Assembly: GCA_047601445.1 (NCBI GenBank)
Contig: JASGJH010000001.1
Span: forward strand, 4,064,001 to 4,128,000
From: Myxococcales bacterium
Lineage (GTDB): Bacteria > Myxococcota_A > Polyangia > Polyangiales > DASUME01
DNA length: 64,000 nucleotides
Direction: 5' to 3'
The position numbers and the translations under genes were made by a program. This document shows, piece after piece, positions 32,682 to 53,059 of the stretch (its first letter is position 1; each line of letters starts with the position of its first letter). The notes under the pieces were generated by a model. It saw nothing but the letters and a program-made list of their open reading frames with translations, was not told where the DNA came from and did not search any database.

Positions 32682-33296
32682 TCAGCGCCACGTGGCGTAG
32701 ACCCCGAGCGCGGCCGAGATCACCATGCACAGGGCCGCGATGCGGAAAAAGCCGACCGCGAATGCGCGCGAGCGAAAGCGTCGGGCCAGGGCATCCGCAC
32801 TGACTCCGTAGACGGCGAGCCCGAGCAGCTCGGTGCACGTGACGGAGACCATCACGATGGCCGCCTGTGTCATCAGGGGCCGTTTGGGGTCGAGATACGC
32901 AGGCAGCATGCCGCCGAAGTAGACCAGCGCATTGGGATTGCCTAGCTGCAGCGCTACCCCGCTGGCGAACAAGCGTGTGCGCGGCGGCGCCTTTTCGCGC
33001 TCCAGCTGCACCGTACCAGCGCGGAACAGGCGCACACCGAGCACGATGATAAAGGCGAGACCTCCCAGCTTGAGCAGCGCGAATAGCAGCGGGAACGCCT
33101 GCGAAAGCGAGGCAGCCCCTGCCACCGCGAGACTCGTCCAGAGCAAGTTCGAGGCGCAGATGCCGAGCGCGGGCAGCATGGCGGGCCAGAAGCCGTAGCG
33201 AATGGAACAGGTCACCACCAACATCACGGCCGGGCCGGGTGTGAGTCCGCCGGCAAGGAAGAGCAACATGAGGGCGATCCACGCCGCGAGTTCCAT
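32682..33296 (-). CDS. LysE/RhtB family translocator
   Basis: LTPGPAVMLVV, LKLGGLAF, LQLGNPNALVYF. Confidence 0.88.
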   Translation of the reverse strand: MELAAWIALMLLFLAGGLTPGPAVMLVVTCSIRYGFWPAMLPALGICASNLLWTSLAVAGAASLSQAFPLLFALLKLGGLAFIIVLGVRLFRAGTVQLEREKAPPRTRLFASGVALQLGNPNALVYFGGMLPAYLDPKRPLMTQAAIVMVSVTCTELLGLAVYGVSADALARRFRSRAFAVGFFRIAALCMVISAALGVYATWR

Positions 33297-33397
33297 GGCG
33301 CCAAGGATGACGTGAAACGAAGCGAGAGCACGAGGGCGGCCGCCCAGGCCGGGGTGAGTACGGAATAGCCAGCATCCCTGGGCCCGTTCGCGGAGCC

Positions 33398-34351
33398 GTG
33401 GTCCAGCACTCCTCCTCCCATCACGGCCCGCTGCCCAAGTACGCCCGGCACAGACGCGGCATGCTCTGCGTGCTCGGCTGCCTGCTCGTTGGCGCCTGCT
33501 CCGATGAGCCCTGCCTCCCCCAGAAGGTCTACGCAGAGGACGACTCCTTTCCCGCCGGAGGAGGGGCGACCACGAAAGAAATGGCGGAACGCCTGGCCCA
33601 AGAACAGGCACTGCCCATCACCTGGGGCGGCGAAGAGCATGGGCTCGATTTCCCACCCTTGCCGATCCAGGGCGACGACGAACTGCTGATGCAAGTTACA
33701 CTCGAGAGTGACCTGACCCAGACGTTCTACGAAGGTCACTCCGACAACGGGGAGGACCATCCGCCTCAGCCCGTCAAAGGCAACTGCTACGCGCACGAAC
33801 CCGAGGCCCACGTGCATGTACACGTGCGAACCCGAAGCGGGATACTCGAGGGGTCGTTCGAAGCGAAGCTCGTCGTGGCGACTGAGCTGGAGCAGATGCT
33901 CTTTTTCGAGCGCACCGGACTGGAAACACCCGACGCGCTAGCGAACTACGCTGCCGCGCTCGGCTTCGACCGTCATCAGGTTCACCTGGGCCTGGCTCTC
34001 TACTACGACTTTCGAGGAAGACTTTCGTACGCTCGCGGGTTCCTCGTCATCGATGCCGAGAACGATCCGAGTCGCGACGTCTTCTTTGGTGCGTGCGGAG
34101 ATCAGCCTGGATTGGGTTGGGATGCGGACGCAGGCCTGCAACCCGACCCGCTCGATTGTCCGCCGATCCTGGCCTCGTGCATGAACCCCAAGGCGAGCGG
34201 GCTCGACAGCTGGGGCTCCTTCCTTGCCTGCCTCAACAAGCCTAATTGCGTGACGTGCCCAACTTCGTCGCCCGTGGACGGGGATCCTCAAAAGGCGGTC
34301 TTTGCCGCGTTCGATGGGCCTTGCCGCTGTACTCAGCTGGACATGCCGTGA
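33398..34351 (+). CDS. Hypothetical lipoprotein
   Basis: MLCVLGCLLVGAC lipobox-like segment. True start may be ATG 33461. Confidence 0.55.
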   Translation: MVQHSSSHHGPLPKYARHRRGMLCVLGCLLVGACSDEPCLPQKVYAEDDSFPAGGGATTKEMAERLAQEQALPITWGGEEHGLDFPPLPIQGDDELLMQVTLESDLTQTFYEGHSDNGEDHPPQPVKGNCYAHEPEAHVHVHVRTRSGILEGSFEAKLVVATELEQMLFFERTGLETPDALANYAAALGFDRHQVHLGLALYYDFRGRLSYARGFLVIDAENDPSRDVFFGACGDQPGLGWDADAGLQPDPLDCPPILASCMNPKASGLDSWGSFLACLNKPNCVTCPTSSPVDGDPQKAVFAAFDGPCRCTQLDMP

Positions 34352-34867
34352 GGCTACGAGAGGGGCGCCAGTTCCGAGACGCTCTCGCCCCGAGACTTCC
34401 TGCTTCGCCTCCGTAGCGCGTCGGCGCCGCTCCATGCACAGACACCGTGGGAGCTAGTGGAGGGAGTCGCACCACTGTCCCCCGTACCCGAATCCGAGCC
34501 GTCGCCGATGCTGATGCACACTGCTTGGTCGCGCATGCCTGCATCGTCCTGCTCGTCGGCGCAGCCACAAAACACCTTGGCCGCATACTCGCGATCGAGC
34601 TCTCGAGTGTCGACGTAAATGTCGGCCGGATCCTCGGCCAAGTAGTGGCACAGTGGCGTCGTAGTGTCCCTCGTCTCGGCCCAAGCGCACGTGCCGCTCC
34701 GCGAACTCGGCGCAGAGCTCGCAACGGTTACTTCCCTGAAGGTCCTTGAGCTTCGCTAGATCGTACTCGGTCATGAGCCCGCACCAATCGGCCGCGTGCG
34801 CCCGATGGTAGGCTCGGGCGATCCAGGTCGAACGATCGCGTTCAAGCGACCCTGCTCCGCCCTCCTC

Positions 34868-34904
34868 AGACACGCGAGAGTCCGTGCTTCGACCACCGCG
34901 TGTG
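34868..34904 (+). repeat. Left copy of 37-bp direct repeat bounding the biosynthetic island
   Basis: agacacgcgagagtccgtgcttcgaccaccgcgtgtg. 34/37 identical to 44782-44818, last 22 bp identical. Confidence 0.85.
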
Positions 34905-35156
34905 TCGCCAACAACCACCAAGGTTGATCTCGGCCGCGACAGAGGCTCGCGGAGCGCTGCGCTTCAGCGCATCGAGCACGCGCAAAGGAAACACCGACAT
35001 CTTGCACTCACCCCTCGCTTGCGATTCGCGCTGCACTCAGAGTTCGAACGCGCACAAGCGGGTTAACCTCCGCACTCGCAGAGAAGATGCGTGATAGGAG
35101 ATGCTTGTACGACGGAGCTCTCCCCCGAGTGTCCGTCTGCAGAGAGGAGGTCTCTC

Positions 35157-35180
35157 ATGAAGTACGACCACGTTGGTTGA
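35157..35180 (+). CDS. Candidate biarylitide-type precursor heptapeptide MKYDHVG
   Basis: ATG AAG TAC GAC CAC GTT GGT TGA with RBS GAGGAGG 6 nt upstream. MxYxH motif, about 330 bp upstream of a P450. Confidence 0.7.
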   Translation: MKYDHVG

Positions 35181-35226
35181 TCGTAGCCAATCCTCCATTT
35201 CTTGGTTTCAACAAGGAGCAATCAAA

Positions 35227-35403
35227 ATGAAGTACAGCAATCAAAGCGGTGCTGTGACGAGCGAAGAGGATCTCTTGCTTTCGGATGAGGAGCTCGGCAG
35301 CGTGCATGGTGGACTCTCGACTCCCCCCAGGATTCCGATCCCGCCGCACTTTCCGCCGATCATTCGCCCACCGGTGACCTTCAACCCCGGCTTCTTCGCA
35401 TGA
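35227..35403 (+). CDS. Candidate RiPP precursor: 29-aa double-glycine leader + 29-aa Pro-rich core
   Basis: RBS AAGGAG. MKYSNQSGAVTSEEDLLLSDEELGSVHGG | LSTPPRIPIPPHFPPIIRPPVTFNPGFFA. LSDEELxxVxGG is the classic GG-leader motif. Confidence 0.8.
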   Translation: MKYSNQSGAVTSEEDLLLSDEELGSVHGGLSTPPRIPIPPHFPPIIRPPVTFNPGFFA

Positions 35404-35409
35404 GTCGGT

Positions 35410-35450
35410 GCAGGGGCGAGTTTCGGCTCGCGAGCGAAATTCGTCCCTGC
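35410..35450 (+). terminator. Stem-loop between the precursor genes and the P450 (mRNA-stabilising or attenuating element)
   Basis: gcaggggcgagtttcg pairs with cgaaattcgtccctgc: 16-bp stem, 14 WC + 2 GU. No U-tract follows. Confidence 0.6.
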
Positions 35451-35507
35451 GCTGCTCCCAACGCGGTCGTCGCGAATATGCCTACGAGAAGAGAGGAGAT
35501 TGAGCCG

Positions 35508-36716
35508 ATGCCCCCCGATCCTGTCTACAACCCGTTGGACGCAGACACCCTGGAGAACCCGTTTCCGATCTATGACTATCTGCGATCCAACGCGCCGGTT
35601 TATTGGCACGAGCAGATGCAGTCATGGGTACTCACCCGATACGCGGACTGCCGGAACGTACTCCTGGACCACAAGCTCTTCGCACGCGACGAACGGCGTG
35701 TGGGTGAGTCGATCCCAGACGATCGCCTGAGCGTGCAACAGCTGGATCCCCCGGAAGTCATCCCTTTACGCCGCTTGTTCTTTCAGGCGTTCAAGGCGGT
35801 CGACCTCGAGCAGATTGCAAGGCGCGCACGCGGCCAGATCAGGGGGCTGCTCGATGCCCATGGCAAGAGGCCGATCTTCGATCTCATGGCAGACGTCGCT
35901 TCACCCGTGGCGGAGTCGCTGACTTGCGAATTCTTCGGTTCACCCACCCCACCGGCGCCGGGAAAGTTCATGCAGATTGCCCATGGCATCGCTCTCGGAA
36001 TGGATGCGGGGCTCGAACCCTGTCAGAGGGGCGCCGGGCGGGCCGTCAGCGTCGAGCTCGACCGCATGGTGCGCGACTGGTCGGAGGACCCCATTCCGGG
36101 AAGTTTCATGGCTGAGGTCAAAGACAAGATCCTCCCACGGAAATACCCGGACACGTTGATCTACCGCACCGTCGACGCCATGGTGAACGCATCGTACTCC
36201 ACGATTTACGCGTCCATTGGAAACGCAGCGCTCACCCTGTTTCAGCATCCAGAGATCCGCGCCGCCTTCACTCCGCACAACCTGGTCAGCGGATGCGACG
36301 AGATCCTGCGCTTCGACAGCCCCGCACATGCAACGAGCCGTGTCGCCACCGAGCGCACCACCATCGGCGGCACGGTGATCGAGCGTGGACAGGTGGTCAT
36401 CACGTTGTTCGCCGCTGCGAATCGAGACCCCGACGGTTTTGAACGCCCCAACGATCTCGTTCTCGACCGCCGTCACAATCATCACCTGGGCTTCGGCTGG
36501 GGTTCGCACCAGTGCCTTGGCATCGGCCTGGCGAACGTCGCCCTGCACGAGTTCGTGTCTGCCGCCCTGGCGCTGCCCGCGTTGCGCTCCCTGGGCAAGC
36601 CGAAGCGCTTTCGAACGGCCACTCTGCGCTGGCTGCAAAACCTGCCCGTAACCGCCTCGCCACAGTCGTCACCGGAAATGGAGGAGCAACGTCATGGCAC
36701 AACTGAACACGCATGA
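35508..36716 (+). CDS. Cytochrome P450, resembling peptide-crosslinking (biarylitide BytO-type) P450s
   Basis: Heme motif HLGFGWGSHQCLG, ExxR in DEILRFDSP, RBS GAGGAG before ATG 35508. RRVGESIP...LSVQQLDPP and GMDAGL segments recalled from biarylitide P450s. P450 call is firm, subfamily less so. Confidence 0.9.
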   Translation: MPPDPVYNPLDADTLENPFPIYDYLRSNAPVYWHEQMQSWVLTRYADCRNVLLDHKLFARDERRVGESIPDDRLSVQQLDPPEVIPLRRLFFQAFKAVDLEQIARRARGQIRGLLDAHGKRPIFDLMADVASPVAESLTCEFFGSPTPPAPGKFMQIAHGIALGMDAGLEPCQRGAGRAVSVELDRMVRDWSEDPIPGSFMAEVKDKILPRKYPDTLIYRTVDAMVNASYSTIYASIGNAALTLFQHPEIRAAFTPHNLVSGCDEILRFDSPAHATSRVATERTTIGGTVIERGQVVITLFAAANRDPDGFERPNDLVLDRRHNHHLGFGWGSHQCLGIGLANVALHEFVSAALALPALRSLGKPKRFRTATLRWLQNLPVTASPQSSPEMEEQRHGTTEHA

Positions 36717-37830
36717 TGAATGGTCGCGAATCAGGGAAGTCATCGTCGGCAGCGCTGCCAACTACACTTCTCATGACCGAGAGCTCTCGTTCGACCTGTT
36801 CTTCCACGAAAACCTCTTCCGCTCGGACTGGGCCTACCCGCGCCTCAAGAGCGCGTGTCCCGTGCGCGATCGGGCCTGGGAGATCAAGCAGCGGTACGTC
36901 GAAGAGCTCAATGAAGACGTGGAAGGCCTCGTCGAGGTCCTGCGCTCTCTCGGCATCACCGTGCACAGGCCGATGCCGCTGCCGCCCAACACCCCCTCAA
37001 TCAAGGGCTTCGGCTGGGAAGCGATGCCCGTTCCTGCGCTCAACGTCCGCGACAACACGCTGATCCTCGGCAACGAGATCATCGAGACCCCGCCGGCCAT
37101 CCGCTCACGCTACCTCGAAACGCGCCTGCTTGCTCCCGCCTTCAAGCACTACCACGACGCAGGCGCTCGCTGGACGACGATGCCGCGTCCCCTCCTCACC
37201 GACCGCTCGTTCGATCTCTCCTACGCGCGCGACACCGAGACCAGCTTGGGGGGACCGACCGAGCCAATCGAGGATCCGCAAGCGTCGCCGTATGACGTGG
37301 GCTTCGAGATGATGTTCGACGGGGCTCAGTGCCTACGCCTTGGCCGCGACCTGGTGATGAACATCGCGAACGCCAACCACGCGCTCGCAGTTGACTGGCT
37401 CGAGCGTCATCTGGAGGGCCGCTACCGCATCCACCGTGCCTTCCGCATGAGTGACAACCACATCGACTCGATGATCTTGGCCTTGCGCCCCGGCGTCTTC
37501 CTTGCGCGTCACGCAGGCATCCGTGAGCACCTTCCGGAGTGCTTCAAGCGCTGGGAGTTCATCGTTCCTCCGGTGCCGGACGTCTTCCCCACCTACGAGG
37601 ACGCAGACCTCGTATTGACCAGCCCATACATCGACCTCAACGTACTCTCCATCAGCCCTACGACATTGCTGGCCAACGCGGCCTGCGTCGATCTGATCAG
37701 AACCCTCGAGCACCGGGGCTTCGAGGTGATCCCCGTTCGGCACCGTCACCGGCGCCTCTTCGGAGGTGGCTTTCATTGCTTCACCTTGGACACCGTCCGC
37801 GATGGCGGACTCGAGGACTACAGCGCCTAG
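36694..37830 (+). CDS. Amidinotransferase (glycine/inosamine-phosphate amidinotransferase family)
   Basis: HDEWSRIREVIVG, NVRD, MFDGAQ, HIDS, catalytic GGGFHCFTLDTVRDG. RBS GGAGGAG. Confidence 0.92.
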   Translation: MAQLNTHDEWSRIREVIVGSAANYTSHDRELSFDLFFHENLFRSDWAYPRLKSACPVRDRAWEIKQRYVEELNEDVEGLVEVLRSLGITVHRPMPLPPNTPSIKGFGWEAMPVPALNVRDNTLILGNEIIETPPAIRSRYLETRLLAPAFKHYHDAGARWTTMPRPLLTDRSFDLSYARDTETSLGGPTEPIEDPQASPYDVGFEMMFDGAQCLRLGRDLVMNIANANHALAVDWLERHLEGRYRIHRAFRMSDNHIDSMILALRPGVFLARHAGIREHLPECFKRWEFIVPPVPDVFPTYEDADLVLTSPYIDLNVLSISPTTLLANAACVDLIRTLEHRGFEVIPVRHRHRRLFGGGFHCFTLDTVRDGGLEDYSA

Positions 37831-37851
37831 CGCGCGGCATGGGAGGCCTGT

Positions 37852-39162
37852 GTGCGCATCCTGATTGGAAATCACATCGACGACTCACTGCTCTGGCAGA
37901 AGGATCAAAGGGCATTTAGTCAGCGCATCTTGTGGTTTGCGCAGGACGGCGACATCGTGATCCTCTCGTGCGAGCCGGACCCCTCTTTTCTCGAGTACGT
38001 CACGTCGCTTGCGGGGGTCGGACGCGACACCCTCGAGTTTCTCGTCGTGCCCCCGGGCGGCCACGGAACACGGCTATTCGATCCCAATTCACTGCTCGAT
38101 CCCGACTTCGTGGCCGAGGTGAAACGGCGCATCGGCGACGTGTCTGATGTCTTTGCGCTGTGGCCCTCCGCCCAGGTCGCCGAGTTTGCCGAACTGCTCG
38201 GGATCCGAGAGAAGCTACCGGGGGCCAGCTTTTTCGCTCAACAAGGCGACGAGCTCGCGAACAACAAAGGAAACTTCCGTGCCTTTGCCGCGGCCCTCGG
38301 CGTACCCGTCGCCGAGGGGGCAGTTTGCCGAACCAAGGAGCACGCAGAGCGAGTCATCGCGCGGCTCCTGCGGACCGGGCCAGTCATGGTCAAACAGGTT
38401 CACAACGGGGCCGGCAACGGCAACGAAGTTCTCGTCTGCGACGACGAGTTGGCCACTGACCATGCCGGCAACAATCGTCGACAGCGAATCGAACCTGGAT
38501 TTTTCGAGGTTCGCGACTACCTCGAAGCGCGCTGGAATTGGGCATCCGTCGGCGGGCGATTCGCCGTGGTGGTCGAGCGCTTCGTGCCAGGGGCTCGCAC
38601 CATATACGCCGAATTCGAGGCCAGAGACGATGGACTGGCGCACACCGCAACCGGATCACTGGGATATGAGCACGGCCGGCTCGTCGAAGAGGTTACGCCG
38701 CTGCGAGGCGTCACCGATGCGGTGCTCGCGCGACTCGTACACCTTGGCGGCCGCCTCGCCGAGACCTACCGGGCGTTTGGCTACCGCGGGTTCATGAGCG
38801 CTGACGCCGTCGTTGACCAATCCGGCAACCTGTTCTTCACCGAAATGAACGCACGTGTGGGCGCTTCTCTCCACCTCTACGAAGGCATCGGAAAGCGGGT
38901 CGTCGATCAGTTTCGTGTTCCTGAGCGGTCACTGATACAGCTCGTGACGCCCAAGCATTGGAAGGTACCAGGCTTCGACGCATTTTCGCGCGTCACTCGC
39001 GAACTCGGCGTCGCCTTCGACCCACTGACTCGGAAAGGAGTGATGGCGGCGATGCCCTTCGCTGGCGAGCCCTGCGCGGGGGGCCTCCTGTTTTGTATAG
39101 CCTACGAGACGGAGCGAGAGCACCACGCCATCGTGGCCCGGCTGACAGAGCGGTTCGGCTGA
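37852..39162 (+). CDS. PGM1-related ATP-grasp peptide ligase (preATP-grasp domain)
   Basis: MRILIGN...QRILWFAQDGDIVIL...PDPSFLEYV, NNKGNFRAFAA, GYRGFMSADAV, FTEMNARVG. RBS GGGAGG. Confidence 0.85.
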   Translation: MRILIGNHIDDSLLWQKDQRAFSQRILWFAQDGDIVILSCEPDPSFLEYVTSLAGVGRDTLEFLVVPPGGHGTRLFDPNSLLDPDFVAEVKRRIGDVSDVFALWPSAQVAEFAELLGIREKLPGASFFAQQGDELANNKGNFRAFAAALGVPVAEGAVCRTKEHAERVIARLLRTGPVMVKQVHNGAGNGNEVLVCDDELATDHAGNNRRQRIEPGFFEVRDYLEARWNWASVGGRFAVVVERFVPGARTIYAEFEARDDGLAHTATGSLGYEHGRLVEEVTPLRGVTDAVLARLVHLGGRLAETYRAFGYRGFMSADAVVDQSGNLFFTEMNARVGASLHLYEGIGKRVVDQFRVPERSLIQLVTPKHWKVPGFDAFSRVTRELGVAFDPLTRKGVMAAMPFAGEPCAGGLLFCIAYETEREHHAIVARLTERFG

Positions 39163-39186
39163 CCCGCCCTTCGCCCGTTCAGCGCG

Positions 39187-40455
39187 TCATGGCGCACTGG
39201 CTTCCGCGGCTAGCGCTGGCGCCGCTTCGTTGAGACGGGACACCCGCCGCTGGAGGCTCGCCATCAAGTCCGTGCATTGCTCTTGATCGACCGCCTCGAC
39301 TACTGCAACGCCAATGCAGGTGGTCGAGCTCTCACGCATGTCGGCCATCGTCTGGCCCACCGGCACGGTCAGCGTGGCCTCCACGACGCCAGGAAGAGCG
39401 CGGATGTCCTCGCATCCAACACGATTGATCCGACCGGCCGACGCGGGGAGAGTCGTTACTCCGAAGACCTTATTCGGCTCACACGGTCGCCGCGGGATCG
39501 CGTCGCCCGTGATCGAGAGCGCTCCGGCCGCCCATAGGTCGACCCCGACCGCGCGCTCAATCATGCTCGAGATGTTGTTGCCAGCTACCCGCGCGGCCAG
39601 CTCGCCCGCAACGAAATCGAACGTACCCGGTCGAGCGAAGACCTCGAAGTGAAACACCCCGGTGACGTGCCCCAAGGCGTCGAGGGCCCGTTGGGTGAAC
39701 GTGCCCGCGGCTTGGTAGAGCTGCGGATGGCGGGACGGCGGGAAGGAAATGCTGGCGTGCTGTTTGCCGTTCTTGATCTCGAGGATAGGGGTCACGTACC
39801 TGGACGCATGGAACGTGTGCAGCTGGCCTTGCAGTACGACCCCGTCGAAGTGCCACTCATCGCCGGCGACAAACTCCTCGACCATCAGCCGGCGCAAATT
39901 CGGGTAATTCGCCACCGTGGTAGATACCGCGCTGACGAGCGCTTCGTCGTCCGATACGAACTGCACGTGACGCGTACCGTACCCGGCGACCGGCTTCAGC
40001 ACGAAGGGAGGACGCAGACCGGCGGTTCGTACCGACGCGAGCACAATGTCGGGGCTGGCACATGCATCGGGCACCACGACGAATCTGGCGGTGGGTATCC
40101 CAGCCTCGTGCCATGCGGCTTTTTGCACCGGCTTGTCGCGACAACGCAGAGCTACCTCGGGGTCGAGCCCACGGATGCCCAGGAGTCGTGCCAGGATGGC
40201 GCTCGAAACGACCCCCGTCTCGCAATTCGAGACCACGGCCCCGATCGGACGTGCGAGCGCACCCACCTGATGCAGCGCCGACCATAGGGACTCGACAGAG
40301 GTAAGCGTGTCGATGGCGCAAAAGTGACGGGCCCGTGGGCGCAGCGCCGAAACCCAGGGCTCTTGCCAGGCTTCGTACAGAAGGGTCACCTCGTGACCGG
40401 CCTCGACGAGGGCATCGAACGCTTCCCGTTTTGCTCTCACCAGCACTACGTGCAT
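39187..40455 (-). CDS. ATP-grasp enzyme (L-amino acid ligase/carboxylate-amine ligase-like); C-terminal part of ORF 39187..42522
   Basis: RCRDKPVQK, PFVLKPVAGYGT, MVEEFVAGDEWHFDG, GVFHFEVF, GELAARVAG. Own in-frame ATG at 40455 preceded by AAGGAG. Confidence 0.85.
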   Translation of the reverse strand: MHVVLVRAKREAFDALVEAGHEVTLLYEAWQEPWVSALRPRARHFCAIDTLTSVESLWSALHQVGALARPIGAVVSNCETGVVSSAILARLLGIRGLDPEVALRCRDKPVQKAAWHEAGIPTARFVVVPDACASPDIVLASVRTAGLRPPFVLKPVAGYGTRHVQFVSDDEALVSAVSTTVANYPNLRRLMVEEFVAGDEWHFDGVVLQGQLHTFHASRYVTPILEIKNGKQHASISFPPSRHPQLYQAAGTFTQRALDALGHVTGVFHFEVFARPGTFDFVAGELAARVAGNNISSMIERAVGVDLWAAGALSITGDAIPRRPCEPNKVFGVTTLPASAGRINRVGCEDIRALPGVVEATLTVPVGQTMADMRESSTTCIGVAVVEAVDQEQCTDLMASLQRRVSRLNEAAPALAAEASAP

Positions 40456-42522
40456 CGCTCTGCTCTCCTTCCGGTAGGCAGCTCTACTCTTCGATGTTTG
40501 GCGATTTGGAGCGGGCTCCGAGCGTGTCCCATGGGCAACAGAGGGAGCCCAATCACAACCTCTCCCGCATTTGAGCGAAGGCGGATTCGAAGCGTTCACG
40601 AGGTCGGATCCAATCGGCACTCGGGCGGTGAAGCCCTTCTCCAGGCGCTCGCATCTTACGTGAGTTGCTCTCGTCGTAGACGAGCCGGGTCGTCCAACGC
40701 TGACCGCGAGCTCCCCGCCCCGTTCCAGTGACAATCTTTGGCCGAAGGCCGACACCCCGGAGAACTCGTGAGGGACAGCCACATCGATCGCGTAGCCTTG
40801 GCCCGGCTCAAATAGATACCGGATGCGGAGACCCGATGAGCGGTCGTCCCAGGAACGGAGCACGCACAGCTCGGCCGAGTCCTCAAAGTGTCGGCGATTG
40901 GAGGCGATCAAGCCCTCGATTCGGTCGGAGATCAGCGCGCGATCCCCCGACTCGGCGTACTGGCGGAGCAGCGGAACGTGCCGTCGCAACAGCTGCGGGA
41001 GATACAACTCGGGTCGCTTCTCGTTGCGGATGACAGCCAGTCGAAAGGTCAGCTCCTGAAGCTCAGCGCGCTCGATTTCAGAGTTCGTCGCCCGCGCATC
41101 GAGCTCCTCGCGATACCGAGCGTACGCATCGATCAAGTCCCGAATCCGCTCGTCCTGAGCGCCTCCGAGCAGAACCTGGTTCAGCGCTTCTCGTCCTCTG
41201 GGCCACAGGCGAGCCAGCAAGCAGAGGATGCCACCGAGATCGTAGGTCCCCGTCCAGCGCGGCATGCGCCTCTCGATGAGAATCGGGGATGTGCCATCGA
41301 AAGCAACCTGATGAAGGTGCAAACCAAGCTGACCGTAGAACTTGCTCGGAGTGCACCGGGCCAGCCAGAATTGGGGAAACCCGCACAAGCGCAGGAGGCC
41401 TCGGATGACAGCCTGGGCATACTTTCGCTTCACCCGTTGCTCGAGCTCCTCGCGCTCGGGGATGGCAGCAGCGAGTCGAGGCGACAGCCCGAGGGCGGTG
41501 CAGTGCGCAAGATTTCTCAGCATGTCGCTGAGATTGGCAGGCGAGTCGGAACGGAACGGCGAGCCGCGCACCGCAATGGTGGAACCATGGTTTGGTTGAG
41601 TCGATTGCGTCTCGAAGTCGAGCAGTCGCCCACTGGTCTCGACATTCGACGACGACAGCGCTCCGTGGGGTGCCCGCCGCACGAGTAGCGCAGCTTGCTG
41701 TTCGGCAAGGCGATCGGCGAACTGCAGGAACCCCTCGCGTAGCGCCTCCTCGCAGGAGGCGGGCTCCGGAGTGTTCCGCGGCAAGGCGGCCATGATGCAT
41801 TGCTGCAGGGACCGGAGACTATCGGCGTCCTGACGAGAATAGGGGTTGAGCATGAAATGCGCCGGGCGCACCGGGAAAGGGCGTAGGAGCAGCGCGCGGC
41901 GCTTGCTGCGGCCATCCGGCAAGAGCATTGATGTCCCACAGTCCAGAATGGCGAGCACGCGGTTGGCGCCATGCGGCGCTTCGGCCTGGTTGAGCTCACC
42001 CCAGACTGCCTCGCGCATGGCATCTCCCAAGAACAGACCTCCATGCCGATGATCGTGCGGACTTCCGTGGTCGGCCAGCGACGTCGTCCCGATGCCTTTG
42101 ATCTGCAGCGATCCGAGCGCGGCTGCGCGGCCGCTCCCACGGTTGGCCCCGATGCCCTCACCACCGTATCGATCGGCATAAAAAGCCCGGGCTTCACCGA
42201 TGAACATGCCAGGCTCATCCTGGTCGTCCGGGATCCGATACGCGAAAGCTTCGAGGAATATGTGCTCGAGCTCAGGTGTGATGCCGTCGCTAGGCAACCC
42301 GAGCTCGAGGTCGCGCAACAGAGACCAGTTCACCCACAGCAGCCTCGCGTCGCGCATTCTTCGGGCGAGCACCGGCACGAACGCCTCCGGTGGTGGTGCC
42401 ACCGGCGCGTTGTCCATGAGCCGAGCGAGCCCGGCTCGGAGCCTGTCGTAGGGGGAAACGGACACGCCAATAGAGGCATGAAGCGATGTTGCGTCGCGAG
42501 CAATCCTCATCACCCCGCACAA
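40456..42522 (-). CDS. SelO/YdiU-like (MchC-like) nucleotidyltransferase-fold domain, in frame with the downstream ATP-grasp
   Basis: LLWVN, ADRYGGEGIGANRGSGRA, LQIKGIGTT, REAVWGE, HGALSSSN...LLDFET parallel the SelO motifs (GDGRA, QLKGAG, RE, HGxxNxDN, D). Start may be 42417. Confidence 0.7.
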
Positions 42523-42554
42523 CAGTACCGACGCGAACCTTCAGGCGGCTCTGC

Positions 42555-43514
42555 TCACCCGGTTGCAAAGCGATCGAGCGCGCTCATCAGGGCCAATCGC
42601 TTGCTGTTGCTGCGCAGGTGCCCGGCGTCGTCCACCGCGATGAGCTCCGCCCCCGCCCATGCTCGCGCAAGGGCCCAGGCGGTGTCGATTGGACAACTCA
42701 TGTCTCGTCTTCCGTGGATCACCACCCCGGGGATTCCATCGAGCCGCGCCGCGTTCTGGATCAGAGCGCCTTCTTCCAACCAACCGCCATGCCGAAGGTA
42801 GTGGGTACAAATGCGCACGAAGGCCAGCATGTCCTCGACCGGCATCTCAGAGCTCGAGGCCGCGCCGGCACCAGTCTCGAGTGAGAGCACCGCGTCCTCC
42901 CATTTGCACCACCCCCTGGCGGCCGCCACCCTGACGGCCTCCTCAGGGTGATCCATGCGCTGGGCGTAAGCCTCGATCAGGTCCGCCCCACGCGCGGTGT
43001 TGGGTAAGGGACCTCGGAATTGTTCCCATGCTTCCGGGAAGAAACGAGCAGCCCCTGCGTACAGCCACTCGGCCTCACGACGAGTCCACGTAGTCACATT
43101 GCTGAGCACGAGCTCAGAAACCGACTCGCGATGGCGATGCGCATAGGCCAGCGCGAGCGCGACACCCCACGAGGCGCCGGAGACCAACCAACGCTCGATG
43201 CCGAGGTGACGCCGGAGGGATTCCATGTCCGCGATGAGGTGATCCGTCGTGTTGCATGACATGTCCGTGGCGAGGTCACTGGCGGAGGGGATCGACCTTC
43301 CGCAGCCCCGTTGGTCGAACAGAACCACCCTATACTGCTCCGGGTCGAACGCGCGCGCCATGTTGGGAGCGCAGCCTTGCCCGGGACCGCCGTGCAGCAC
43401 CACAGCGGGCTTTCCGTGGGGTACGCCGAAGACCTGCCACGCGATGCGGTTTTCGGAGCTGACCTCCAGGTGTCCTTCTTGGATGGGTCCTCGCAGCGGA
43501 TACAAGTCGACCAT
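42555..43514 (-). CDS. pip: Proline iminopeptidase (peptidase S33)
   Basis: VVLHGGPG, FDQRGCGRS, nucleophile GASWG, HGRRD, DAGH. Confidence 0.88.
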   Translation of the reverse strand: MVDLYPLRGPIQEGHLEVSSENRIAWQVFGVPHGKPAVVLHGGPGQGCAPNMARAFDPEQYRVVLFDQRGCGRSIPSASDLATDMSCNTTDHLIADMESLRRHLGIERWLVSGASWGVALALAYAHRHRESVSELVLSNVTTWTRREAEWLYAGAARFFPEAWEQFRGPLPNTARGADLIEAYAQRMDHPEEAVRVAAARGWCKWEDAVLSLETGAGAASSSEMPVEDMLAFVRICTHYLRHGGWLEEGALIQNAARLDGIPGVVIHGRRDMSCPIDTAWALARAWAGAELIAVDDAGHLRSNSKRLALMSALDRFATG

Positions 43515-43571
43515 GGAGACCTCGCATTCGTTGACACCGGATTTTCGCCAAACGCAACCGACCCCGACCGT

Positions 43572-44615
43572 CTACCCTGAAGACGGGCCCGTGTCTCGTG
43601 GAGGAACGGCCTGCGCGACGAGCACGTGAACGCCGGAGCGGGTGGTCAACACTCGCTCGATCACGAAGCCGGCTGCAACGAGCAAGGCGCGGTTCTCGTC
43701 GAGCGTGCGATCCCGAGCCCCGAACAACACGAGCATCGTCAGGTCTCGAATCGACGATGGAAGTCCGCCCTCGCGCTCCAGGTCGAGCGAGCGCTCGATG
43801 AGCAAGAGGCGCCCACCTCCCGTGATGGCGCGCCGCACGTTGCCAAGGATTTGCAAGGCCTCTTCGTCGCGCCAGTTGTGAATCACTGCCTTGAGCAAAT
43901 AGAGTTCTGCTCCAGCAGGAACCTCCCGCAACAGGTCGCCGGCGAGCGCTGTGCCTCGCCCGCTCACTCCTCGCTCCTGAAGAGTATGCCTGACTTGTTC
44001 GACCACGGCCGCCTGCTCGACCGCGATTCCTTGCAACTCCGGGTGTCCCTTCAGTACCTCGGCGAGCAGGGTTCCGTCACCCGCTCCCAGGTCGACGACC
44101 AGGCCTCGCTCGGGGAACTCGTACAGGGCTTCGAACTCGTTCCAGAAATGGGAGCTGTTGAAGCGCATCGTGCGCGCGAAGGAACGCGCCAGCTCGGGGG
44201 TTTCGCTCATGTAGGTCCACAGCCCCCGCCCATGCACGTGCTCGAAAGCCGAGCGACCGGTACGCAACGCGTAGCTCAAGCAGGCCCAGGCGTCGTAGTA
44301 TTCGGTTCCAGACATTCGAGCGTGACCATGAAGCAGACCCGCCTCGTGGTGCAGCAGCTTGCAGAGCGCGGTACCGTGAACCAGACCGTCGACGCGCTGT
44401 ACGAGCTCGAGTCCCTCAAGCGCATCCAAGTACCTGCGCAGTTCGTTCGTGCCGATACCGGTCAGCTCCGCGAGAGTGCGTTCGGTCTGCGGCCCCTCGG
44501 CCAGAAAGTCCGGGATGCGGAGCGTCACCGCCGAGGCCACGAGCTGCGTAACGATGTACCCACCCAACAGCTTCCCGAGCCGCTCGCCTTCCGGCCTGGC
44601 TTCGTTCTGGAGCAT
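43572..44615 (-). CDS. SAM-dependent methyltransferase (O-MT family 2 with dimerisation domain)
   Basis: VVDLGAGDG, GDLLREVP, YLLKAVIHNWRDE, DLTMLVLFGARDRT. RBS GAGGAGG before ATG 44615. Confidence 0.92.
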   Translation of the reverse strand: MLQNEARPEGERLGKLLGGYIVTQLVASAVTLRIPDFLAEGPQTERTLAELTGIGTNELRRYLDALEGLELVQRVDGLVHGTALCKLLHHEAGLLHGHARMSGTEYYDAWACLSYALRTGRSAFEHVHGRGLWTYMSETPELARSFARTMRFNSSHFWNEFEALYEFPERGLVVDLGAGDGTLLAEVLKGHPELQGIAVEQAAVVEQVRHTLQERGVSGRGTALAGDLLREVPAGAELYLLKAVIHNWRDEEALQILGNVRRAITGGGRLLLIERSLDLEREGGLPSSIRDLTMLVLFGARDRTLDENRALLVAAGFVIERVLTTRSGVHVLVAQAVPPRDTGPSSG

Positions 44616-44781
44616 TCGGAACCTCCTCAACTGCTTGCCTCAAGTCGTACTCGAGTGCGAGGCCCATGGCGACGAGGTTAACCCCGCGTGGCGCAAGATG
44701 ACGGCGGTCCAGCCCGCCCAACCGCCGATGGTCCCTATCCGCCATAGCGATGGCGTTCAAGCGCCCCGCCAACGCCCCATG

Positions 44782-44818
44782 AGACAAGCCAGAGTGCGTG
44801 CTTCGACCACCGCGTGTG
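44782..44818 (+). repeat. Right copy of 37-bp direct repeat bounding the biosynthetic island
   Basis: agacaagccagagtgcgtgcttcgaccaccgcgtgtg. Confidence 0.85.
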
Positions 44819-48758: not shown

Positions 48759-50849
48759 ATGTCCGCACGAAGCGCATTGGCTTGGCTCACGCTCTTGGTT
48801 GGTTGTACGGCGGCAGCCCCGCAGAGCGATGTCACCTCAGCCCCATCACCCAGCGCGCCAGGTGACGCGCCCGGGAGTACGCCGACGGGAGAAGCGTCGT
48901 CGAGCTCCGCGCGGGAAGAGGCCCCGAACCCCGACCCGATGTTCGTGGACGCCATTTTCCAGGCCAAGTCCGCGGTGGTCGTGAAGGATGGCCAGATGTT
49001 CGGCGACTGGGAGTGGGTCGAGGTACCTGGTTCCCAGTGTCGGGATGGGTCCACCGCCGGCTACTACATCAAGCGCAACAGTGCGTCCGACAATCTGATG
49101 ATCTTCCTGAACGGCGGCGGCGTCTGCTACGACGACTTCTTCTGCTCCATCAACCCGGCCAACGTGGACCAAAGTCTACCGGGCGAAAACCTGCTCGGCG
49201 CCATCGGCGATATCCTGACAAACAGCGTCGCTCCGGTGCGCCAGGTTCCGCCCGAGGCAGGCATCTTCTTGGATCGTCCCGAGAACCCCGTCGGCAAGTG
49301 GAACATGGTCTACGTGCCCTATTGCACGGGCGATGTGCATGCTGGCACCAAGCGCGACGCGCCCGTGTTCACGGCGTCGTTCGTGGGCAAGCAGCAGTTC
49401 GTGGGCTACGACAACCTGAGCTTGTTCCTGGAAGACTTCGGCGCTGCATTTCAGGGCGCAGAGAAGGTGCTGCTCACCGGATCGAGCGCCGGTGGCTTTG
49501 GCACCCTGCTCAACTTCGACCGCACCCAGCGCTTCTTCTCCGACAGCATGGTGTATGCGGTGAGCGACTCGGGCATCCCCTTCGGCGACGAGTTCCTCGA
49601 GCCGTGTCTGCAGAAGCGCTGGCGCGAGCTCTGGGGCCTCGACGCCGTCTTGCCGCGCGACTGCTCGGGTTGCTTCAACGCCGACGGCGGCGGCCTGGCC
49701 TCGGGACTCGGCCACTACATCTTCAAAGAGAAATACGCAGGCCGCATGTTGGGTGGGGGGATCTCCACCGAGCAGGACGAGATCATCAAGCTCTTCTTCA
49801 GCTCGGGCTTGCGCGAGTGCACCAACAGTGCCCTGCTCGAGACCATCCCACTCTTCCTCGGCTTGACTGGCTATCCTGCAGATCGCTACCCGGGCGGCCT
49901 GCGCGACTTCGTGCAGAACATCGCCGGACTCGACAGTGTGGGCAGCTACATCATGGCCGGCAGCAATCACCAGCACTTGTTCCGCGATCGCTTCTACAGC
50001 TCGAACGGCCTTGGAATCACGCTGGCCCACTGGCTGGCCAAGACCCTGGATGGCGAAGCGGTCCACGCGGGTGCGCTGCTCGATGCGGCGCCCGAGCCCA
50101 CTTTCGGATCCACGGGTCACAACGGTCCACTGAAGGTCGCCAGCTACACCAGCGGCTTCCGCGACGGCCCCGACTTCGCGGACGCGACCATCTGGTACCC
50201 CGATGGCGTGACGGGGCCCCTGGCGAGCGTGGCCGTGGTTCCAGGCTGGGTTTCGAGCCAAGGCGACGTGACCGATTGGGGGCCGTTCTTGGCCTCTCAC
50301 GGTTTTGCCGTGATCACCATCGGCACCAACAGCCCTGCCACGGATCTGCCGGCCGACCGTGAACGCGCGGTCATGGACGCGCTCGAGACGATGCGCGCCG
50401 AGAACAGCCGCTGGTTCGGTCCGCTGCAGAACAAGCTCGACCTGACGCGTCAGGCGGTGATCGGCTGGTCCATGGGAGGCGGCGCGAGCCTGCTGGCGGC
50501 AGCCGATCATCCCGAGCTCAAGGCGGCCGTCTCGCTGTGTGGCTGGAACCCTGGCCATTCCTACAACGACGTGACGGTTCCTTCCCTACTCTTTGCGGGC
50601 ACCCTCGATGCTCTTGCCGGCGGTCAGTCGCAGGGCTTCTACGAGAGCATCCCCAACGCTACGCCGCGCTTGCTCTACGAAGTTCAAGGCGGTGACCACT
50701 GGGTCGCGAATGACCCCGCACACGAAGAGGGACAAATTGGACGCCTCGCGCTGTCGTGGTTGAAGCTCTACGTCGATGGCGACGAGCGCTACCGCAAGTT
50801 CCTGCTCGAAGAGCCCTTCAACGCCGCCGACTTCCGGGTCGACCTGTAG
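48759..50849 (+). CDS. Lipoprotein fusing a pectinacetylesterase-family esterase with a cutinase/PETase-like hydrolase
   Basis: LLVGC lipobox. Domain 1: CRDGS, FLNGGGVC, YVPYCTGDVH, TGSSAGG. Domain 2: VVPGW, WGPFLASHGF, GWSMGGG, D in GTLDAL, H in GGDHW. Confidence 0.85.
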   Translation: MSARSALAWLTLLVGCTAAAPQSDVTSAPSPSAPGDAPGSTPTGEASSSSAREEAPNPDPMFVDAIFQAKSAVVVKDGQMFGDWEWVEVPGSQCRDGSTAGYYIKRNSASDNLMIFLNGGGVCYDDFFCSINPANVDQSLPGENLLGAIGDILTNSVAPVRQVPPEAGIFLDRPENPVGKWNMVYVPYCTGDVHAGTKRDAPVFTASFVGKQQFVGYDNLSLFLEDFGAAFQGAEKVLLTGSSAGGFGTLLNFDRTQRFFSDSMVYAVSDSGIPFGDEFLEPCLQKRWRELWGLDAVLPRDCSGCFNADGGGLASGLGHYIFKEKYAGRMLGGGISTEQDEIIKLFFSSGLRECTNSALLETIPLFLGLTGYPADRYPGGLRDFVQNIAGLDSVGSYIMAGSNHQHLFRDRFYSSNGLGITLAHWLAKTLDGEAVHAGALLDAAPEPTFGSTGHNGPLKVASYTSGFRDGPDFADATIWYPDGVTGPLASVAVVPGWVSSQGDVTDWGPFLASHGFAVITIGTNSPATDLPADRERAVMDALETMRAENSRWFGPLQNKLDLTRQAVIGWSMGGGASLLAAADHPELKAAVSLCGWNPGHSYNDVTVPSLLFAGTLDALAGGQSQGFYESIPNATPRLLYEVQGGDHWVANDPAHEEGQIGRLALSWLKLYVDGDERYRKFLLEEPFNAADFRVDL

Positions 50850-51930: not shown

Positions 51931-52932
51931 TCAGGGATCTCGCGCGCAGCGGAAGCCGAGATGGTTCGTGGTGCTGTCAGGGGCGCCCTTGCCCCGCGCA
52001 CCGGGCATGTAACGGGAGCAGTACTGGTCGGTGCAGAGAAACGAGCCGCCCTTTTGTACCCGCTTGGCCACCCCGGGTTCTTCGGGGTCGTCGCTGTCAT
52101 TCGGACCTCCAGGGTCGGTGACTCGACCGTGGGCCGACACCACCGCGTAGTAGTCCGCACGGTACCAATCCGAAACCCACTCCCAAACGTTCCCCGACAT
52201 GTCGAACAGACCCAAGGCATTGGGAGGGAACGAGCCTACGGGCGCCGTGTGTCGATACCCGTCTTCTTCCGTATTGTGGGTGGGAAATCGCCCCTGGAAG
52301 GTGTTCGCCATCAACCTTCCTTCGGGTCGCGGCTCATGCCCCCAGGTGTAGGGCGCGCGCTCGAGACCACCCCGCGCTGCGAACTCCCACTCGGCTTCGG
52401 TGGGTAGCCGCTTGCGTGCCCAACGCGCGAAAGCCTGCGCGTCTTCATGGGCGATGTGCACCACCGGATGATTGCCGAGGCCACGCAAGTCGCTATCCGG
52501 CCCGCTCGGACGGCGCCAACTCGCTCCCTGCACATAGCGCCACCATGCGTAATGGGAGCCCAGATTCGTCGAGCTTCGAGGGGGCGTAAAGACGGACGAG
52601 CCTGCGACGAGGTTCTCCTTGGGAACCCCGGGATAGCGGTCCGCAGTGGGCATGCGCTCCGCCAGCGTGACGTACCCAGTCGCTCGGACGAAGCGTGCGA
52701 ACTGCTCGTTCGTGACCTCGGTGACGTCGATCCAGAATGGGCTGACCTTCACTTCGTGAATGGGCTGCGCGTCGCGCATGTGGCGCGACGGATTGCCCAT
52801 CGCGAACACACCGCCAGAAACGAACACCATCCCAGTTGGAGGGGTCAGCTCAGTTTGTGCACCGCGTCCGAACGCTGCCGCACTGCCAAAGACGATGGCA
52901 GCCAAGCACCCAAGCACGAGCCATCTTCGCAT
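51931..52932 (-). CDS. Formylglycine-generating enzyme (sulfatase-modifying factor)
   Basis: EVTNEQF, RLPTEAEWE, GNVWEW, KGGSFLCTDQYCSRY (CxxxxC), HLGFRC. Confidence 0.92.
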   Translation of the reverse strand: MRRWLVLGCLAAIVFGSAAAFGRGAQTELTPPTGMVFVSGGVFAMGNPSRHMRDAQPIHEVKVSPFWIDVTEVTNEQFARFVRATGYVTLAERMPTADRYPGVPKENLVAGSSVFTPPRSSTNLGSHYAWWRYVQGASWRRPSGPDSDLRGLGNHPVVHIAHEDAQAFARWARKRLPTEAEWEFAARGGLERAPYTWGHEPRPEGRLMANTFQGRFPTHNTEEDGYRHTAPVGSFPPNALGLFDMSGNVWEWVSDWYRADYYAVVSAHGRVTDPGGPNDSDDPEEPGVAKRVQKGGSFLCTDQYCSRYMPGARGKGAPDSTTNHLGFRCARDP

Positions 52933-53059
52933 ATCGCCTCACCTGGTCGTCGCCCCGGCAAGGCAATGCAAAAGCGAAGCCGGAAGAGGTGCAAAACCGT
53001 TCGAGCGCCCGTTGGTGGCTCCCTTCTTGCTGCCGGGTCCTGGCTAGAGGAGGTTCGAC

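Follow-up and report, generated by a model that had tools for sequence, protein, structure and literature searches.

Which product does a compact locus make when its two convergent operons combine two small peptide genes, a cytochrome P450, two ATP-grasp ligases, an amidinotransferase and a domain resembling a microcin maturation protein, and do the two operons belong to one pathway? The locus is a gene island of 9.9 kb within the 64-kb stretch of DNA analyzed here (the window, to which all coordinates refer unless a genome position is given). On the plus strand follow a mini open reading frame (mini-ORF), a 58-aa ORF and the genes for the P450, the amidinotransferase and a PGM1-type ligase, in this order. 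The convergent minus-strand operon encodes an O-methyltransferase, an S33 prolyl aminopeptidase and a fusion of an MchC-like domain with an ATP-grasp ligase. An initial annotation had read these genes as a candidate system for a ribosomally made peptide with post-translational modifications (RiPP); all genes that it listed are present where it placed them, and the two convergent operons are 24 bp apart, with their stop codons at 39160-39162 and 39187-39189. The evidence makes it likely that the bracketed stretch 34905-44797 (9893 bp) is one horizontally acquired island encoding a Tyr-Asp-His biarylitide of the subfamily associated with Pgm1 ligases, and the island probably makes an undescribed relative of the biarylitides.

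The first gene of the plus-strand operon encodes the heptapeptide MKYDHVG and is preceded by the Shine-Dalgarno sequence GAGAGGAGG. This peptide fits the definition of a biarylitide precursor (5 to 8 aa, MxYxH/Y; PMC13417212), and on both strands of the 64-kb window it is the sole product of an ATG-started mini-ORF of 5 to 8 aa that has an aromatic residue at both position 3 and position 5. Across the 9.5-Mb genome there are 26 such mini-ORFs, five of them with a Shine-Dalgarno-like word, and only MKYDHVG has the form x-Y-D-H. From its end at 35180 to the P450 start at 35508 there are 327 nt, inside the conventional 500-bp window, with another ORF within. Because the signature of the mini-ORF and the double-glycine leader pattern of the 58-aa ORF described below are each unique in the genome, it is very unlikely that the two small ORFs are accidental. 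A second mini-ORF, encoding MKYLH, at genome position C1:241004, has a weak Shine-Dalgarno-like word and was taken as a chance occurrence; it lies inside a 589-aa ORF of the opposite strand with no P450 nearby, and serves as a gauge of the background rate for such mini-ORFs.

The best solved relatives of the P450 are 22yx, an unnamed P450 (3.5e-79), and 8spc, 8spp and 8u2m (about 5e-68). This top structure group extends from 3.5e-79 to 7e-57, whereas all other P450s score 1e-31 and weaker. Of these, 8spc and 8spp correspond to RufO and 8u2m to P450Blt with its pentapeptide; the substrates of both enzymes are five-residue ribosomal peptides. The haem-ligand Cys in FGWGSHQCLG is invariant among relatives, and by homology the P450 is of the biarylitide type, as the initial annotation had proposed. 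Among 400 genomes of the same phylum the clade was matched only twice (33-35% identity), and no mini-ORF was found upstream of either match in the first 1600 nt of each locus. The N-terminal 26 to 36 residues of the longest P450 frame, which is open from 35400, are not conserved in relatives and GAGGAG stands before ATG 35508, so that this codon, 104 nt past the 58-aa ORF and without overlap with its stop, is most likely the start, and translational coupling between the two genes is not predicted.

The amidinotransferase and the PGM1-type ligase that follow had both been named correctly in the initial annotation, and match StrB1 (9e-46) and PGM1 (2e-78), respectively. The amidinotransferase has no Pfam or NCBIfam match. 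Its FDGA, HIDS and GGGFHCFT align with FDAA, HVDS and GGGFHCAT of StrB1; in StrB1 and AGAT the aligned motifs bear the catalytic residues Asp, His and Cys. Because these motifs, the haem Cys of the P450 and the Lys, Asn and Asp motifs of the MchC-like domain are all kept, the enzymes of the island look active.

An Asp at position 4 of the precursor, together with a full-length PGM1 homologue (2e-78), is what defines a recently published subfamily. In a search for precursors of 5 to 8 residues, Padva et al. (JACS Au, July 2026; PMC13417212) report 277 biarylitide clusters. Pgm1 ligases accompany Asp-4 precursors in 47 of these clusters, from sequence only and with no product given (PMC13417212). 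Because every testable defining feature was found, the island is assigned, from its predicted products, to the biarylitide class and to this Pgm1-associated Asp-4 subfamily. The subfamily is already in print, and the island is hence less novel. The initial claim of an unreported combination of enzymes therefore survives only in part: P450, Asp-4 precursor and Pgm1 ligase are in print for the 47 clusters (PMC13417212), and this core plus the amidinotransferase is present on four Streptomyces plasmids, but the accessory genes were not found described. In the literature searched, whose coverage ends short of the cluster table of PMC13417212, there was no description of the MchC-like/ATP-grasp fusion, an in-cluster S33 aminopeptidase, the O-methyltransferase, a 7-residue precursor or an embedded double-glycine proline-rich peptide.

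The Streptomyces plasmids (NZ_CP061283, NZ_CP108495, NZ_CP013744 and NZ_CP107846) came from a tblastn search of plasmid records with the P450, which gave six matches; five loci were viewed. All four Streptomyces clusters encode the P450, a PGM1-related ligase, an Asp/Asn beta-hydroxylase, a glycine-amidinotransferase-type protein, a second ATP-grasp enzyme and a convergent APH-family kinase, and upstream of each P450 gene, at a distance of 70-100 bp, lies an unannotated M[ST]YDH mini-ORF preceded by a ribosome-binding site rich in purines. Identity between the island and Streptomyces proteins is 38-42% for the P450, 44-48% for the PGM1-like ligase, 66-70% for the amidinotransferase and 24-28% for the second ATP-grasp enzyme; the value for the amidinotransferase points to transfer between distant lineages. 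The amidinotransferase and the PGM1-type ligase are taken as orthologues of their Streptomyces counterparts. In each of the four clusters the APH-family kinase gene lies on the opposite strand, just past the second ATP-grasp gene, and a tyrosine recombinase gene is found a few kilobases upstream in two of them. The fifth locus, on the Bacillus arachidis plasmid NZ_CP127373, has a 42%-identical P450 by an IS6 transposase, with two ATP-grasp genes, a pyridoxal phosphate-dependent enzyme and a methyltransferase. Within 1 kb upstream of its P450 gene no aromatic mini-ORF was detected, and the precursor may have been displaced or lost.

The island thus shares with Pgm1-associated x-Y-D-H clusters the M-x-Y-D-H mini-ORF, the BytO-type P450, the PGM1-type ligase, the amidinotransferase and the second ATP-grasp enzyme. 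It differs from them in its 7-residue precursor with a VG tail, in the 58-aa peptide encoded between precursor and P450, in the MchC/SelO-like domain that is fused to the second ATP-grasp in place of an APH-family kinase, in having no Asp/Asn beta-hydroxylase, in the added S33 aminopeptidase and PF00891 methyltransferase, and in its gene order with convergent operons. The host, unlike those of the Streptomyces examples, is apparently not an actinomycete. With the minimal biarylitide clusters (bytA-bytO, and bytA-bytO-bytZ for myxarylin) the island has in common the ultra-short Tyr3/His5 precursor, the P450 clade and a methyltransferase in the cluster. The methyltransferase of myxarylin is an N-methyltransferase; that of the island is of the PF00891 type. 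The characterized minimal clusters, unlike the island, have no ligases, amidinotransferase or MchC-like gene. Characterized biarylitide clusters are without a dedicated protease, and the myxarylin leader is removed by a serine peptidase encoded elsewhere (PMC12951456). An MSYDH peptide was a poor substrate of P450Blt in a 2022 test.

Whether the minus-strand operon belongs to the same unit can be judged from the borders of the island, its composition and its relatives. An imperfect direct repeat of about 72 nt (families D1 and D2, 80-86% identity, spacing 9914-9915 nt) encloses precisely the mini-ORF through the methyltransferase gene, and the 21-nt repeat core has exactly two occurrences in the 9.5-Mb genome, 9914 nt apart. 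The GC content of the island is 63.3%, compared with 66.3% for the genome, which places it at the 4.5th percentile among equal-sized tiles. Among the five proteins most similar to the MchC-like domain, four lie on contigs equal in size to contigs that encode 54-63%-identical P450s (17036, 4848, 20566 and 13456 bp), equal size in base pairs being used as a proxy for a shared contig in place of the contig DNA. The 4848-bp contig would leave little space beyond the P450 and MchC-like genes. Neither the fusion protein nor the aminopeptidase (at E<=1e-60) was matched in any of nine genomes of the same genus. Shared sister contigs, the bracketing repeat, composition and absence from relatives together indicate that both operons form a single horizontally acquired unit, in line with the initial view that they belong together. 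At the DNA level, the island and its flanks are too divergent from the nine same-genus genomes for a reading of synteny. Three lipase-bearing contigs from same-genus genomes share no other flank gene, and a scan for promoters and terminators gave nothing exceeding shuffled expectation.

The MchC-like/ATP-grasp fusion is among the features that set the island apart from the Streptomyces clusters. The initial annotation had recognized both a SelO-like domain and a second ATP-grasp enzyme; both are present, not as separate proteins but within one fused polypeptide. A frameshift as the source of the fusion was rejected, as the junction shows no sign of one and the conserved tail is not encoded in any alternative frame. 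In 60 related genomes (the nine of the same genus and 51 others), the ATP-grasp part alone was matched and the MchC-like domain was not found. The N-terminal portion of about 690 residues has no sequence match in Pfam or the PDB. A word-filtered search of a 5.8-billion-protein collection, with 7999 candidates scored, gave five close relatives (46-50% identity), all of them stand-alone proteins of 621-680 aa, and one distant relative (32%) with PF02696 SelO. Pattern scans with the alignment of the MchC-like domain added distant relatives only, at 31-33% identity in housekeeping contexts, and a fragment of 49% identity from a low-GC contig of 1.3 kb.

The fold of this domain points to the SelO family. 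An AlphaFold2 model built from the seven-sequence alignment is of moderate quality (predicted local distance difference test score, 64; predicted template-modeling score, 0.60). With this model, the top nine Foldseek hits are all YdiU/SelO (8e-8 to 9e-7; template-modeling score by target, 0.49-0.55), and the next hit is at 0.049. A canonical SelO is encoded elsewhere in the genome (C1:5967914-5969332; 409 bits to PF02696), and the island domain is therefore a further, divergent paralogue. PF02696 has no match on the fusion protein at E<=10, and a six-frame search of the genome at E<=1 gave the canonical copy only. Alignment of the domain with the genome's own SelO by hhalign (E 4e-5) pairs GSGRA...QIKGIG with GDGRA...LKGAG and HGALSSSN...LLDFE with HGVMNTDN...TIDYG. 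The domain thus has the fold of the SelO/YdiU AMPylases and UMPylases, with the Gly-rich loop/Lys, HG...N and D motifs aligned, and differs from them in a catalytic loop SSSN rather than NTDN, in about 200 extra C-terminal residues and in its setting in a biosynthetic cluster.

A closer resemblance is to MchC proteins. When the domain was compared with plasmids by tblastn, 22 records were matched, with E 9e-11 to 2e-33 over 29-43% of the domain among the 10 listed. Three of these 10 are annotated as "MchC protein," two as "protein adenylyltransferase SelO family protein," one as "putative bacteriocin maturation protein" and four as "hypothetical protein"; E values were 1e-15 to 2e-20 for the annotated MchC proteins and down to 2e-33 for the SelO-family bacteriocin-maturation proteins. 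Residues invariant among the island domain and the plasmid homologues include Lys107, Arg184-Pro-Ala-His187, Ser257-Asn258 and Asp267, and the motifs QIKGxG, RPAHF, [ST]xSN and D are common to the domain and MchC proteins. In all three plasmid loci viewed the homologue adjoins an HlyC-type acyltransferase gene; two of them also have bacteriocin-export genes (an HlyD-family protein and a peptidase-domain ABC transporter), and one of these two an annotated bacteriocin gene. The N-terminal domain is, in its sequence, nearer to MchC than to canonical SelO, and the SelO/MchC-like assignment of the initial annotation agrees with both this direct similarity and the SelO fold hits. MchC and MceJ are known remote SelO homologues required for C-terminal modification of microcins (PMC3281104, PMC6071977).

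The 58-aa ORF has the translation MKYSNQSGAVTSEEDLLLSDEELGSVHGGLSTPPRIPIPPHFPPIIRPPVTFNPGFFA and resembles a bacteriocin precursor with a double-glycine leader. The consensus of such leaders is LSxxELxxIxGG, and residues 18-29 of the peptide fit it at every fixed position. The strict pattern LSxxELxx[IVL]xGG has one match across the six frames of the genome, in this ORF, and none in three 3-Mb shuffles. Neither Tyr nor Trp occurs in the core and His only once, and its C-terminus, NPGFFA, is not Ser-rich. No homologue was found among 1.84 billion representatives, a search that short, fast-evolving precursors could escape, and a protein atlas gave only weak leads (0.84) from the peptide to lantibiotic and ComC peptide clusters. 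No cognate C39 peptidase is encoded in the 64-kb window; two C39-peptidase ABC transporters are found about 0.77 and 4.2 Mb from the island (C1:4869434-4869817 and C1:8275520-8275903). As the strict leader motif occurs once in the genome, either the substrates of both transporters must have looser leaders or one transporter must serve the 58-aa peptide. By its leader and placement, the ORF is a real gene of the precursor type within the island. Its position in the P450 operon and in the island speaks for a part in the pathway, which would fit, by analogy, with PGM1 enzymes taking leader-cleaved ribosomal peptides as amine partners and with MchC-type enzymes working on double-glycine bacteriocins. 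Against such a role stand the lack of a counterpart within 9 kb in the four Streptomyces YDH clusters, the search that gave no homologue, the core without Tyr or Trp for the P450 and the distance of both C39 exporters. A structure prediction for a complex of the PGM1-type ligase with the peptide scored 0.00 and gave no verdict either way.

Although parts of the island recall two other groups of peptide pathways, most of the defining features of both siderophore-microcin and pheganomycin systems were not found in it. Like pheganomycin-type systems, the island has a full-length PGM1 homologue (2e-78), an amidinotransferase and one or more ribosomal peptide genes, and the pairing of a PGM1-type ligase with an amidinotransferase is also known from ketomemicin and resorcinomycin. 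The aromatic guanidino acid of pheganomycin is built by a type III polyketide synthase/phenylglycine pathway. Pfam searches of all island ORFs gave no genes for a phenylglycine-type acid, and the island also has a P450 and a biarylitide precursor, unlike pheganomycin. Because genes to build the acid are missing, the island is not, judged from its gene content, a pheganomycin system. PGM1 itself is described as joining acids to the N-termini of ribosomal peptides (PMC13417212).

With the maturation of siderophore-microcins by MchC/MceJ the island shares a SelO-family kinase-fold domain and a double-glycine peptide encoded nearby. In siderophore-microcin precursors the C-terminus is Ser-rich. 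The peptide tail encoded here is not, the MchC-like domain forms one protein with an ATP-grasp ligase, and the island has no HlyC-type acyltransferase (MchD/MceI), glycosyltransferase, siderophore genes or C39 transporter. The acyltransferase was absent from the island by Pfam; a genome-wide search for the HlyC-type family matched no control genome and is thus uninformative. Lacking an acyltransferase partner, an exporter, siderophore genes and a Ser-rich tail, the island is not, on its predicted functions, a siderophore-microcin system.

A pathway consistent with these assignments would begin with the P450, which by homology to P450Blt and BytO would cross-link Tyr3 to His5 of MKYDHVG. The two leader residues would then be removed, for which the in-cluster S33 aminopeptidase is the candidate by analogy. 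The amidinotransferase would produce an N-amidino (guanidino) acid, and the PGM1-type ligase may couple this acid through an amide bond to the newly exposed N-terminus, in the manner of pheganomycin. A further amide, on the side chain of Asp4 or at the C-terminus, may be made by the fused second ATP-grasp. The MchC-like domain, a putative nucleotidyl- or phosphoryltransferase, could activate or tag a carboxylate or the Tyr hydroxyl with a nucleotide or phosphate; its position beside the second ATP-grasp corresponds to the place of the APH-family kinase in Streptomyces. Finally, the PF00891 methyltransferase would O-methylate the product. The initial annotation went further in placing three RiPP chemistries on one peptide, a claim that is not supported in this form, as no result shows which peptide is acted on by any enzyme after the P450.

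Several observations weigh against the assignment of the whole island to a Pgm1-associated biarylitide. All steps past the cross-link are inferred by analogy, and the sole published test of an amidinotransferase-bearing biarylitide cluster, of the MRYVH type from Saccharothrix, detected only the unmodified cross-linked tripeptide. The literature search yielded no characterized product for any Pgm1-associated Asp-4 cluster. The gap of 327 nt between mini-ORF and P450 is longer than the 70-100 nt or so in Streptomyces. No homologue of the MchC-like domain, the aminopeptidase, the PF00891 methyltransferase or the 58-aa peptide lies within 9 kb in the Streptomyces clusters, and their Asp/Asn beta-hydroxylase and APH-family kinase are missing from the island. 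Co-occurrence on sister contigs is read from equal sizes in base pairs. The weakest member of the unit is the aminopeptidase, whose only connection to the cluster is where its gene lies, between the repeats and in the operon. It belongs to an abundant family, with 7151 of 8000 scored candidates matching at E<=1e-60, and of the best 120 of these 7151 relatives none is on a contig of sister size. Some named relatives of the aminopeptidase are from metagenome-assembled genomes of Polyangiales, which hints at the taxon of the host. The aminopeptidase was matched in 22 of 31 other genomes of the same order (40-48% identity), and a paralogue elsewhere in the genome is 37.5% identical.

The alternatives differ in which peptide each enzyme would serve. 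Two systems could lie side by side, a plus-strand Pgm1-type YDH biarylitide and an MchC-like/ATP-grasp protein that modifies the C-terminus of the 58-aa peptide, perhaps assisted by the aminopeptidase and methyltransferase, in a microcin-like maturation in which a C39 transporter encoded far away would export the product. The textbook double-glycine leader, the two C39 transporters elsewhere in the genome and the absence of an MchC-like gene or second peptide from the Streptomyces YDH clusters all suit such an arrangement, as do the nearest annotated MchC-like relatives, which sit in bacteriocin clusters with an acyltransferase gene and, in two of three loci, export genes. The action of MchC/MceJ on microcin C-termini (PMC3281104, PMC6071977) is also compatible with it. 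However, for four of the five close MchC-like relatives the contig, in one case of only 4848 bp, seems to be shared with the P450 clade; the 58-aa gene is part of the P450 operon and does not adjoin the MchC-like gene; Pfam detected no HlyC-type acyltransferase in the island; and the tail NPGFFA is not Ser-rich. This arrangement is therefore considered unlikely. Somewhat less probable again is a peptide-peptide conjugate, in which the PGM1-type ligase or the MchC-like/ATP-grasp fusion would join the cross-linked, amidino-capped biarylitide to the proline-rich 29-mer left after leader cleavage. The two peptide genes share one operon and one island, and the unusual VG tail of MKYDHVG could be a linker. 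PGM1 couples acids to ribosomal peptide N-termini (PMC13417212), and MchC-type enzymes add a moiety at the C-terminus of a peptide. Nevertheless, four Streptomyces clusters have the amidinotransferase/PGM1/ATP-grasp core but no second peptide, a search of 1.84 billion representatives revealed no homologue of the 58-aa peptide, and the ligation itself would be an extrapolation.

Two further readings concern the P450 and are far less probable. The 58-aa peptide could be its true substrate and MKYDHVG a chance mini-ORF, as the longer gene is more conventional looking, lies nearer to the P450 gene (104 nt) and also begins MKY. This is very improbable, since the core has no Tyr or Trp and one His, position 5 is Asn, an M-x-Y-D-H peptide is encoded upstream of the homologous P450 in all four Streptomyces loci and the mini-ORF is unique in the genome. 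Alternatively, the P450 could nitrate or otherwise modify Tyr3 and so feed a noncanonical amino acid into a different pathway. The best solved relatives include structures of RufO, an enzyme that acts on a ribosomal pentapeptide. The genome has no nitric oxide synthase gene, while control genomes were matched, so nitration of the RufO type is unlikely; moreover, a Pfam scan of ORFs between 27.6 and 54.8 kb gave no nonribosomal peptide synthetase genes, and there is scarcely any probability left for this route. A single horizontally acquired island for a Pgm1-associated Tyr-Asp-His biarylitide remains the likely explanation.

Table 1. Features of the island and its bracketing repeats (window coordinates)
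Feature	Position	Strand	Basis and remarks
Left direct-repeat copy, imperfect, ~72 nt	34833..34904	.	21-nt perfect core at 34884-34904
bytA-like mini-ORF, MKYDHVG (7 aa; Tyr3, Asp4, His5 and a 2-residue C-terminal extension, VG)	35157..35180	+	Translation; Shine-Dalgarno site
58-aa precursor-type peptide; leader residues 1-29 ending GG, proline-rich 29-residue core (putative)	35227..35403	+	Translation; AAGGAG 8 nt upstream
Cytochrome P450, BytO/P450Blt/RufO clade	35508..36716	+	PF00067; frame open from 35400, likely start ATG 35508
Amidinotransferase, 378 aa	36694..37830	+	PDB matches: StrB1 9e-46, AGAT about 1e-43 to 1e-42, SxtG about 1e-42 to 2.5e-41
PGM1-type ATP-grasp peptide ligase	37852..39162	+	PGM1 3wvq 2e-78, residues 1-421, full length; PF18604 Pre-ATP-grasp 2e-24
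Fusion protein, 1076-1111 aa	39187-42417/42522	-	ORF open to 42522; database start 42417
L-amino-acid-ligase-type ATP-grasp domain, C-terminal ~410 residues of fusion	39187..40422	-	LAL_C2 3e-9, ATP-grasp_4; L-amino acid ligase 4wd3 3e-20
MchC/SelO-like kinase-fold domain, N-terminal ~690 residues of fusion	40423..42417	-	Relatives, fold, motifs
S33 prolyl aminopeptidase	42555..43514	-	TIGR01249, 294.4 bits versus cut-off 259.75
Class I O-methyltransferase, PF00891 type	43572..44615	-	Methyltransf_2 1e-33, dimerization domain; start ATG 44615 behind AGGAGG
Right direct-repeat copy	44748..44818	.	Core at 44798; upstream of GDSL lipase gene

The flanks of the island show where it may have entered. 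On the left, the minus-strand stretch 34354-34921 appears degraded, with an ORF starting MTEYDLAKLK at about 34775 that enters low-complexity sequence. It adjoins a plus-strand gene (33398-34351) for a putative lipoprotein of 317 aa with an LVGAC lipobox and without a Pfam family. The insertion site may be the divergent promoter region between the lipoprotein-side gene and the GDSL lipase gene. Just beyond the left repeat, and outside the bracketed unit, a LysE-type translocator (PF01810, 4e-25) is encoded at 32682-33611 on the minus strand and could act as exporter of a small basic product. Farther to the right lie a gene for a 696-aa protein with a pectin-acetylesterase domain and a polyethylene terephthalate hydrolase-like domain (PF12740, 8e-60) at 48759-50849 and, at 51931-54799, a divergent pair for a formylglycine-generating enzyme (PF03781, 3e-80) and a sulfatase (PF00884, 1e-63).

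To our knowledge, the precursors of biarylitides are the smallest ribosomal precursors. The island holds the core of a subfamily with 47 clusters and an uncharacterized product in 9.9 kb and, because it is compact and has clear borders, could be cloned and expressed as one piece. Its MchC/SelO-like domain, fused to an ATP-grasp, could reveal the chemistry of MchC-type enzymes, and the dedicated aminopeptidase and the proline-rich double-glycine peptide are further additions to the characterized biarylitide plan. If the two peptides were joined, the island would make a hybrid RiPP of a novel type that parallels the C-terminal appendage of siderophore-microcins, with a biarylitide replacing the siderophore, and an MchC-like domain fused to an amide-forming ligase, without the acyltransferase pairing, would represent a new way of activating a peptide carboxylate. 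If they are not joined, the cluster still extends the Pgm1-associated subfamily beyond actinomycetes.

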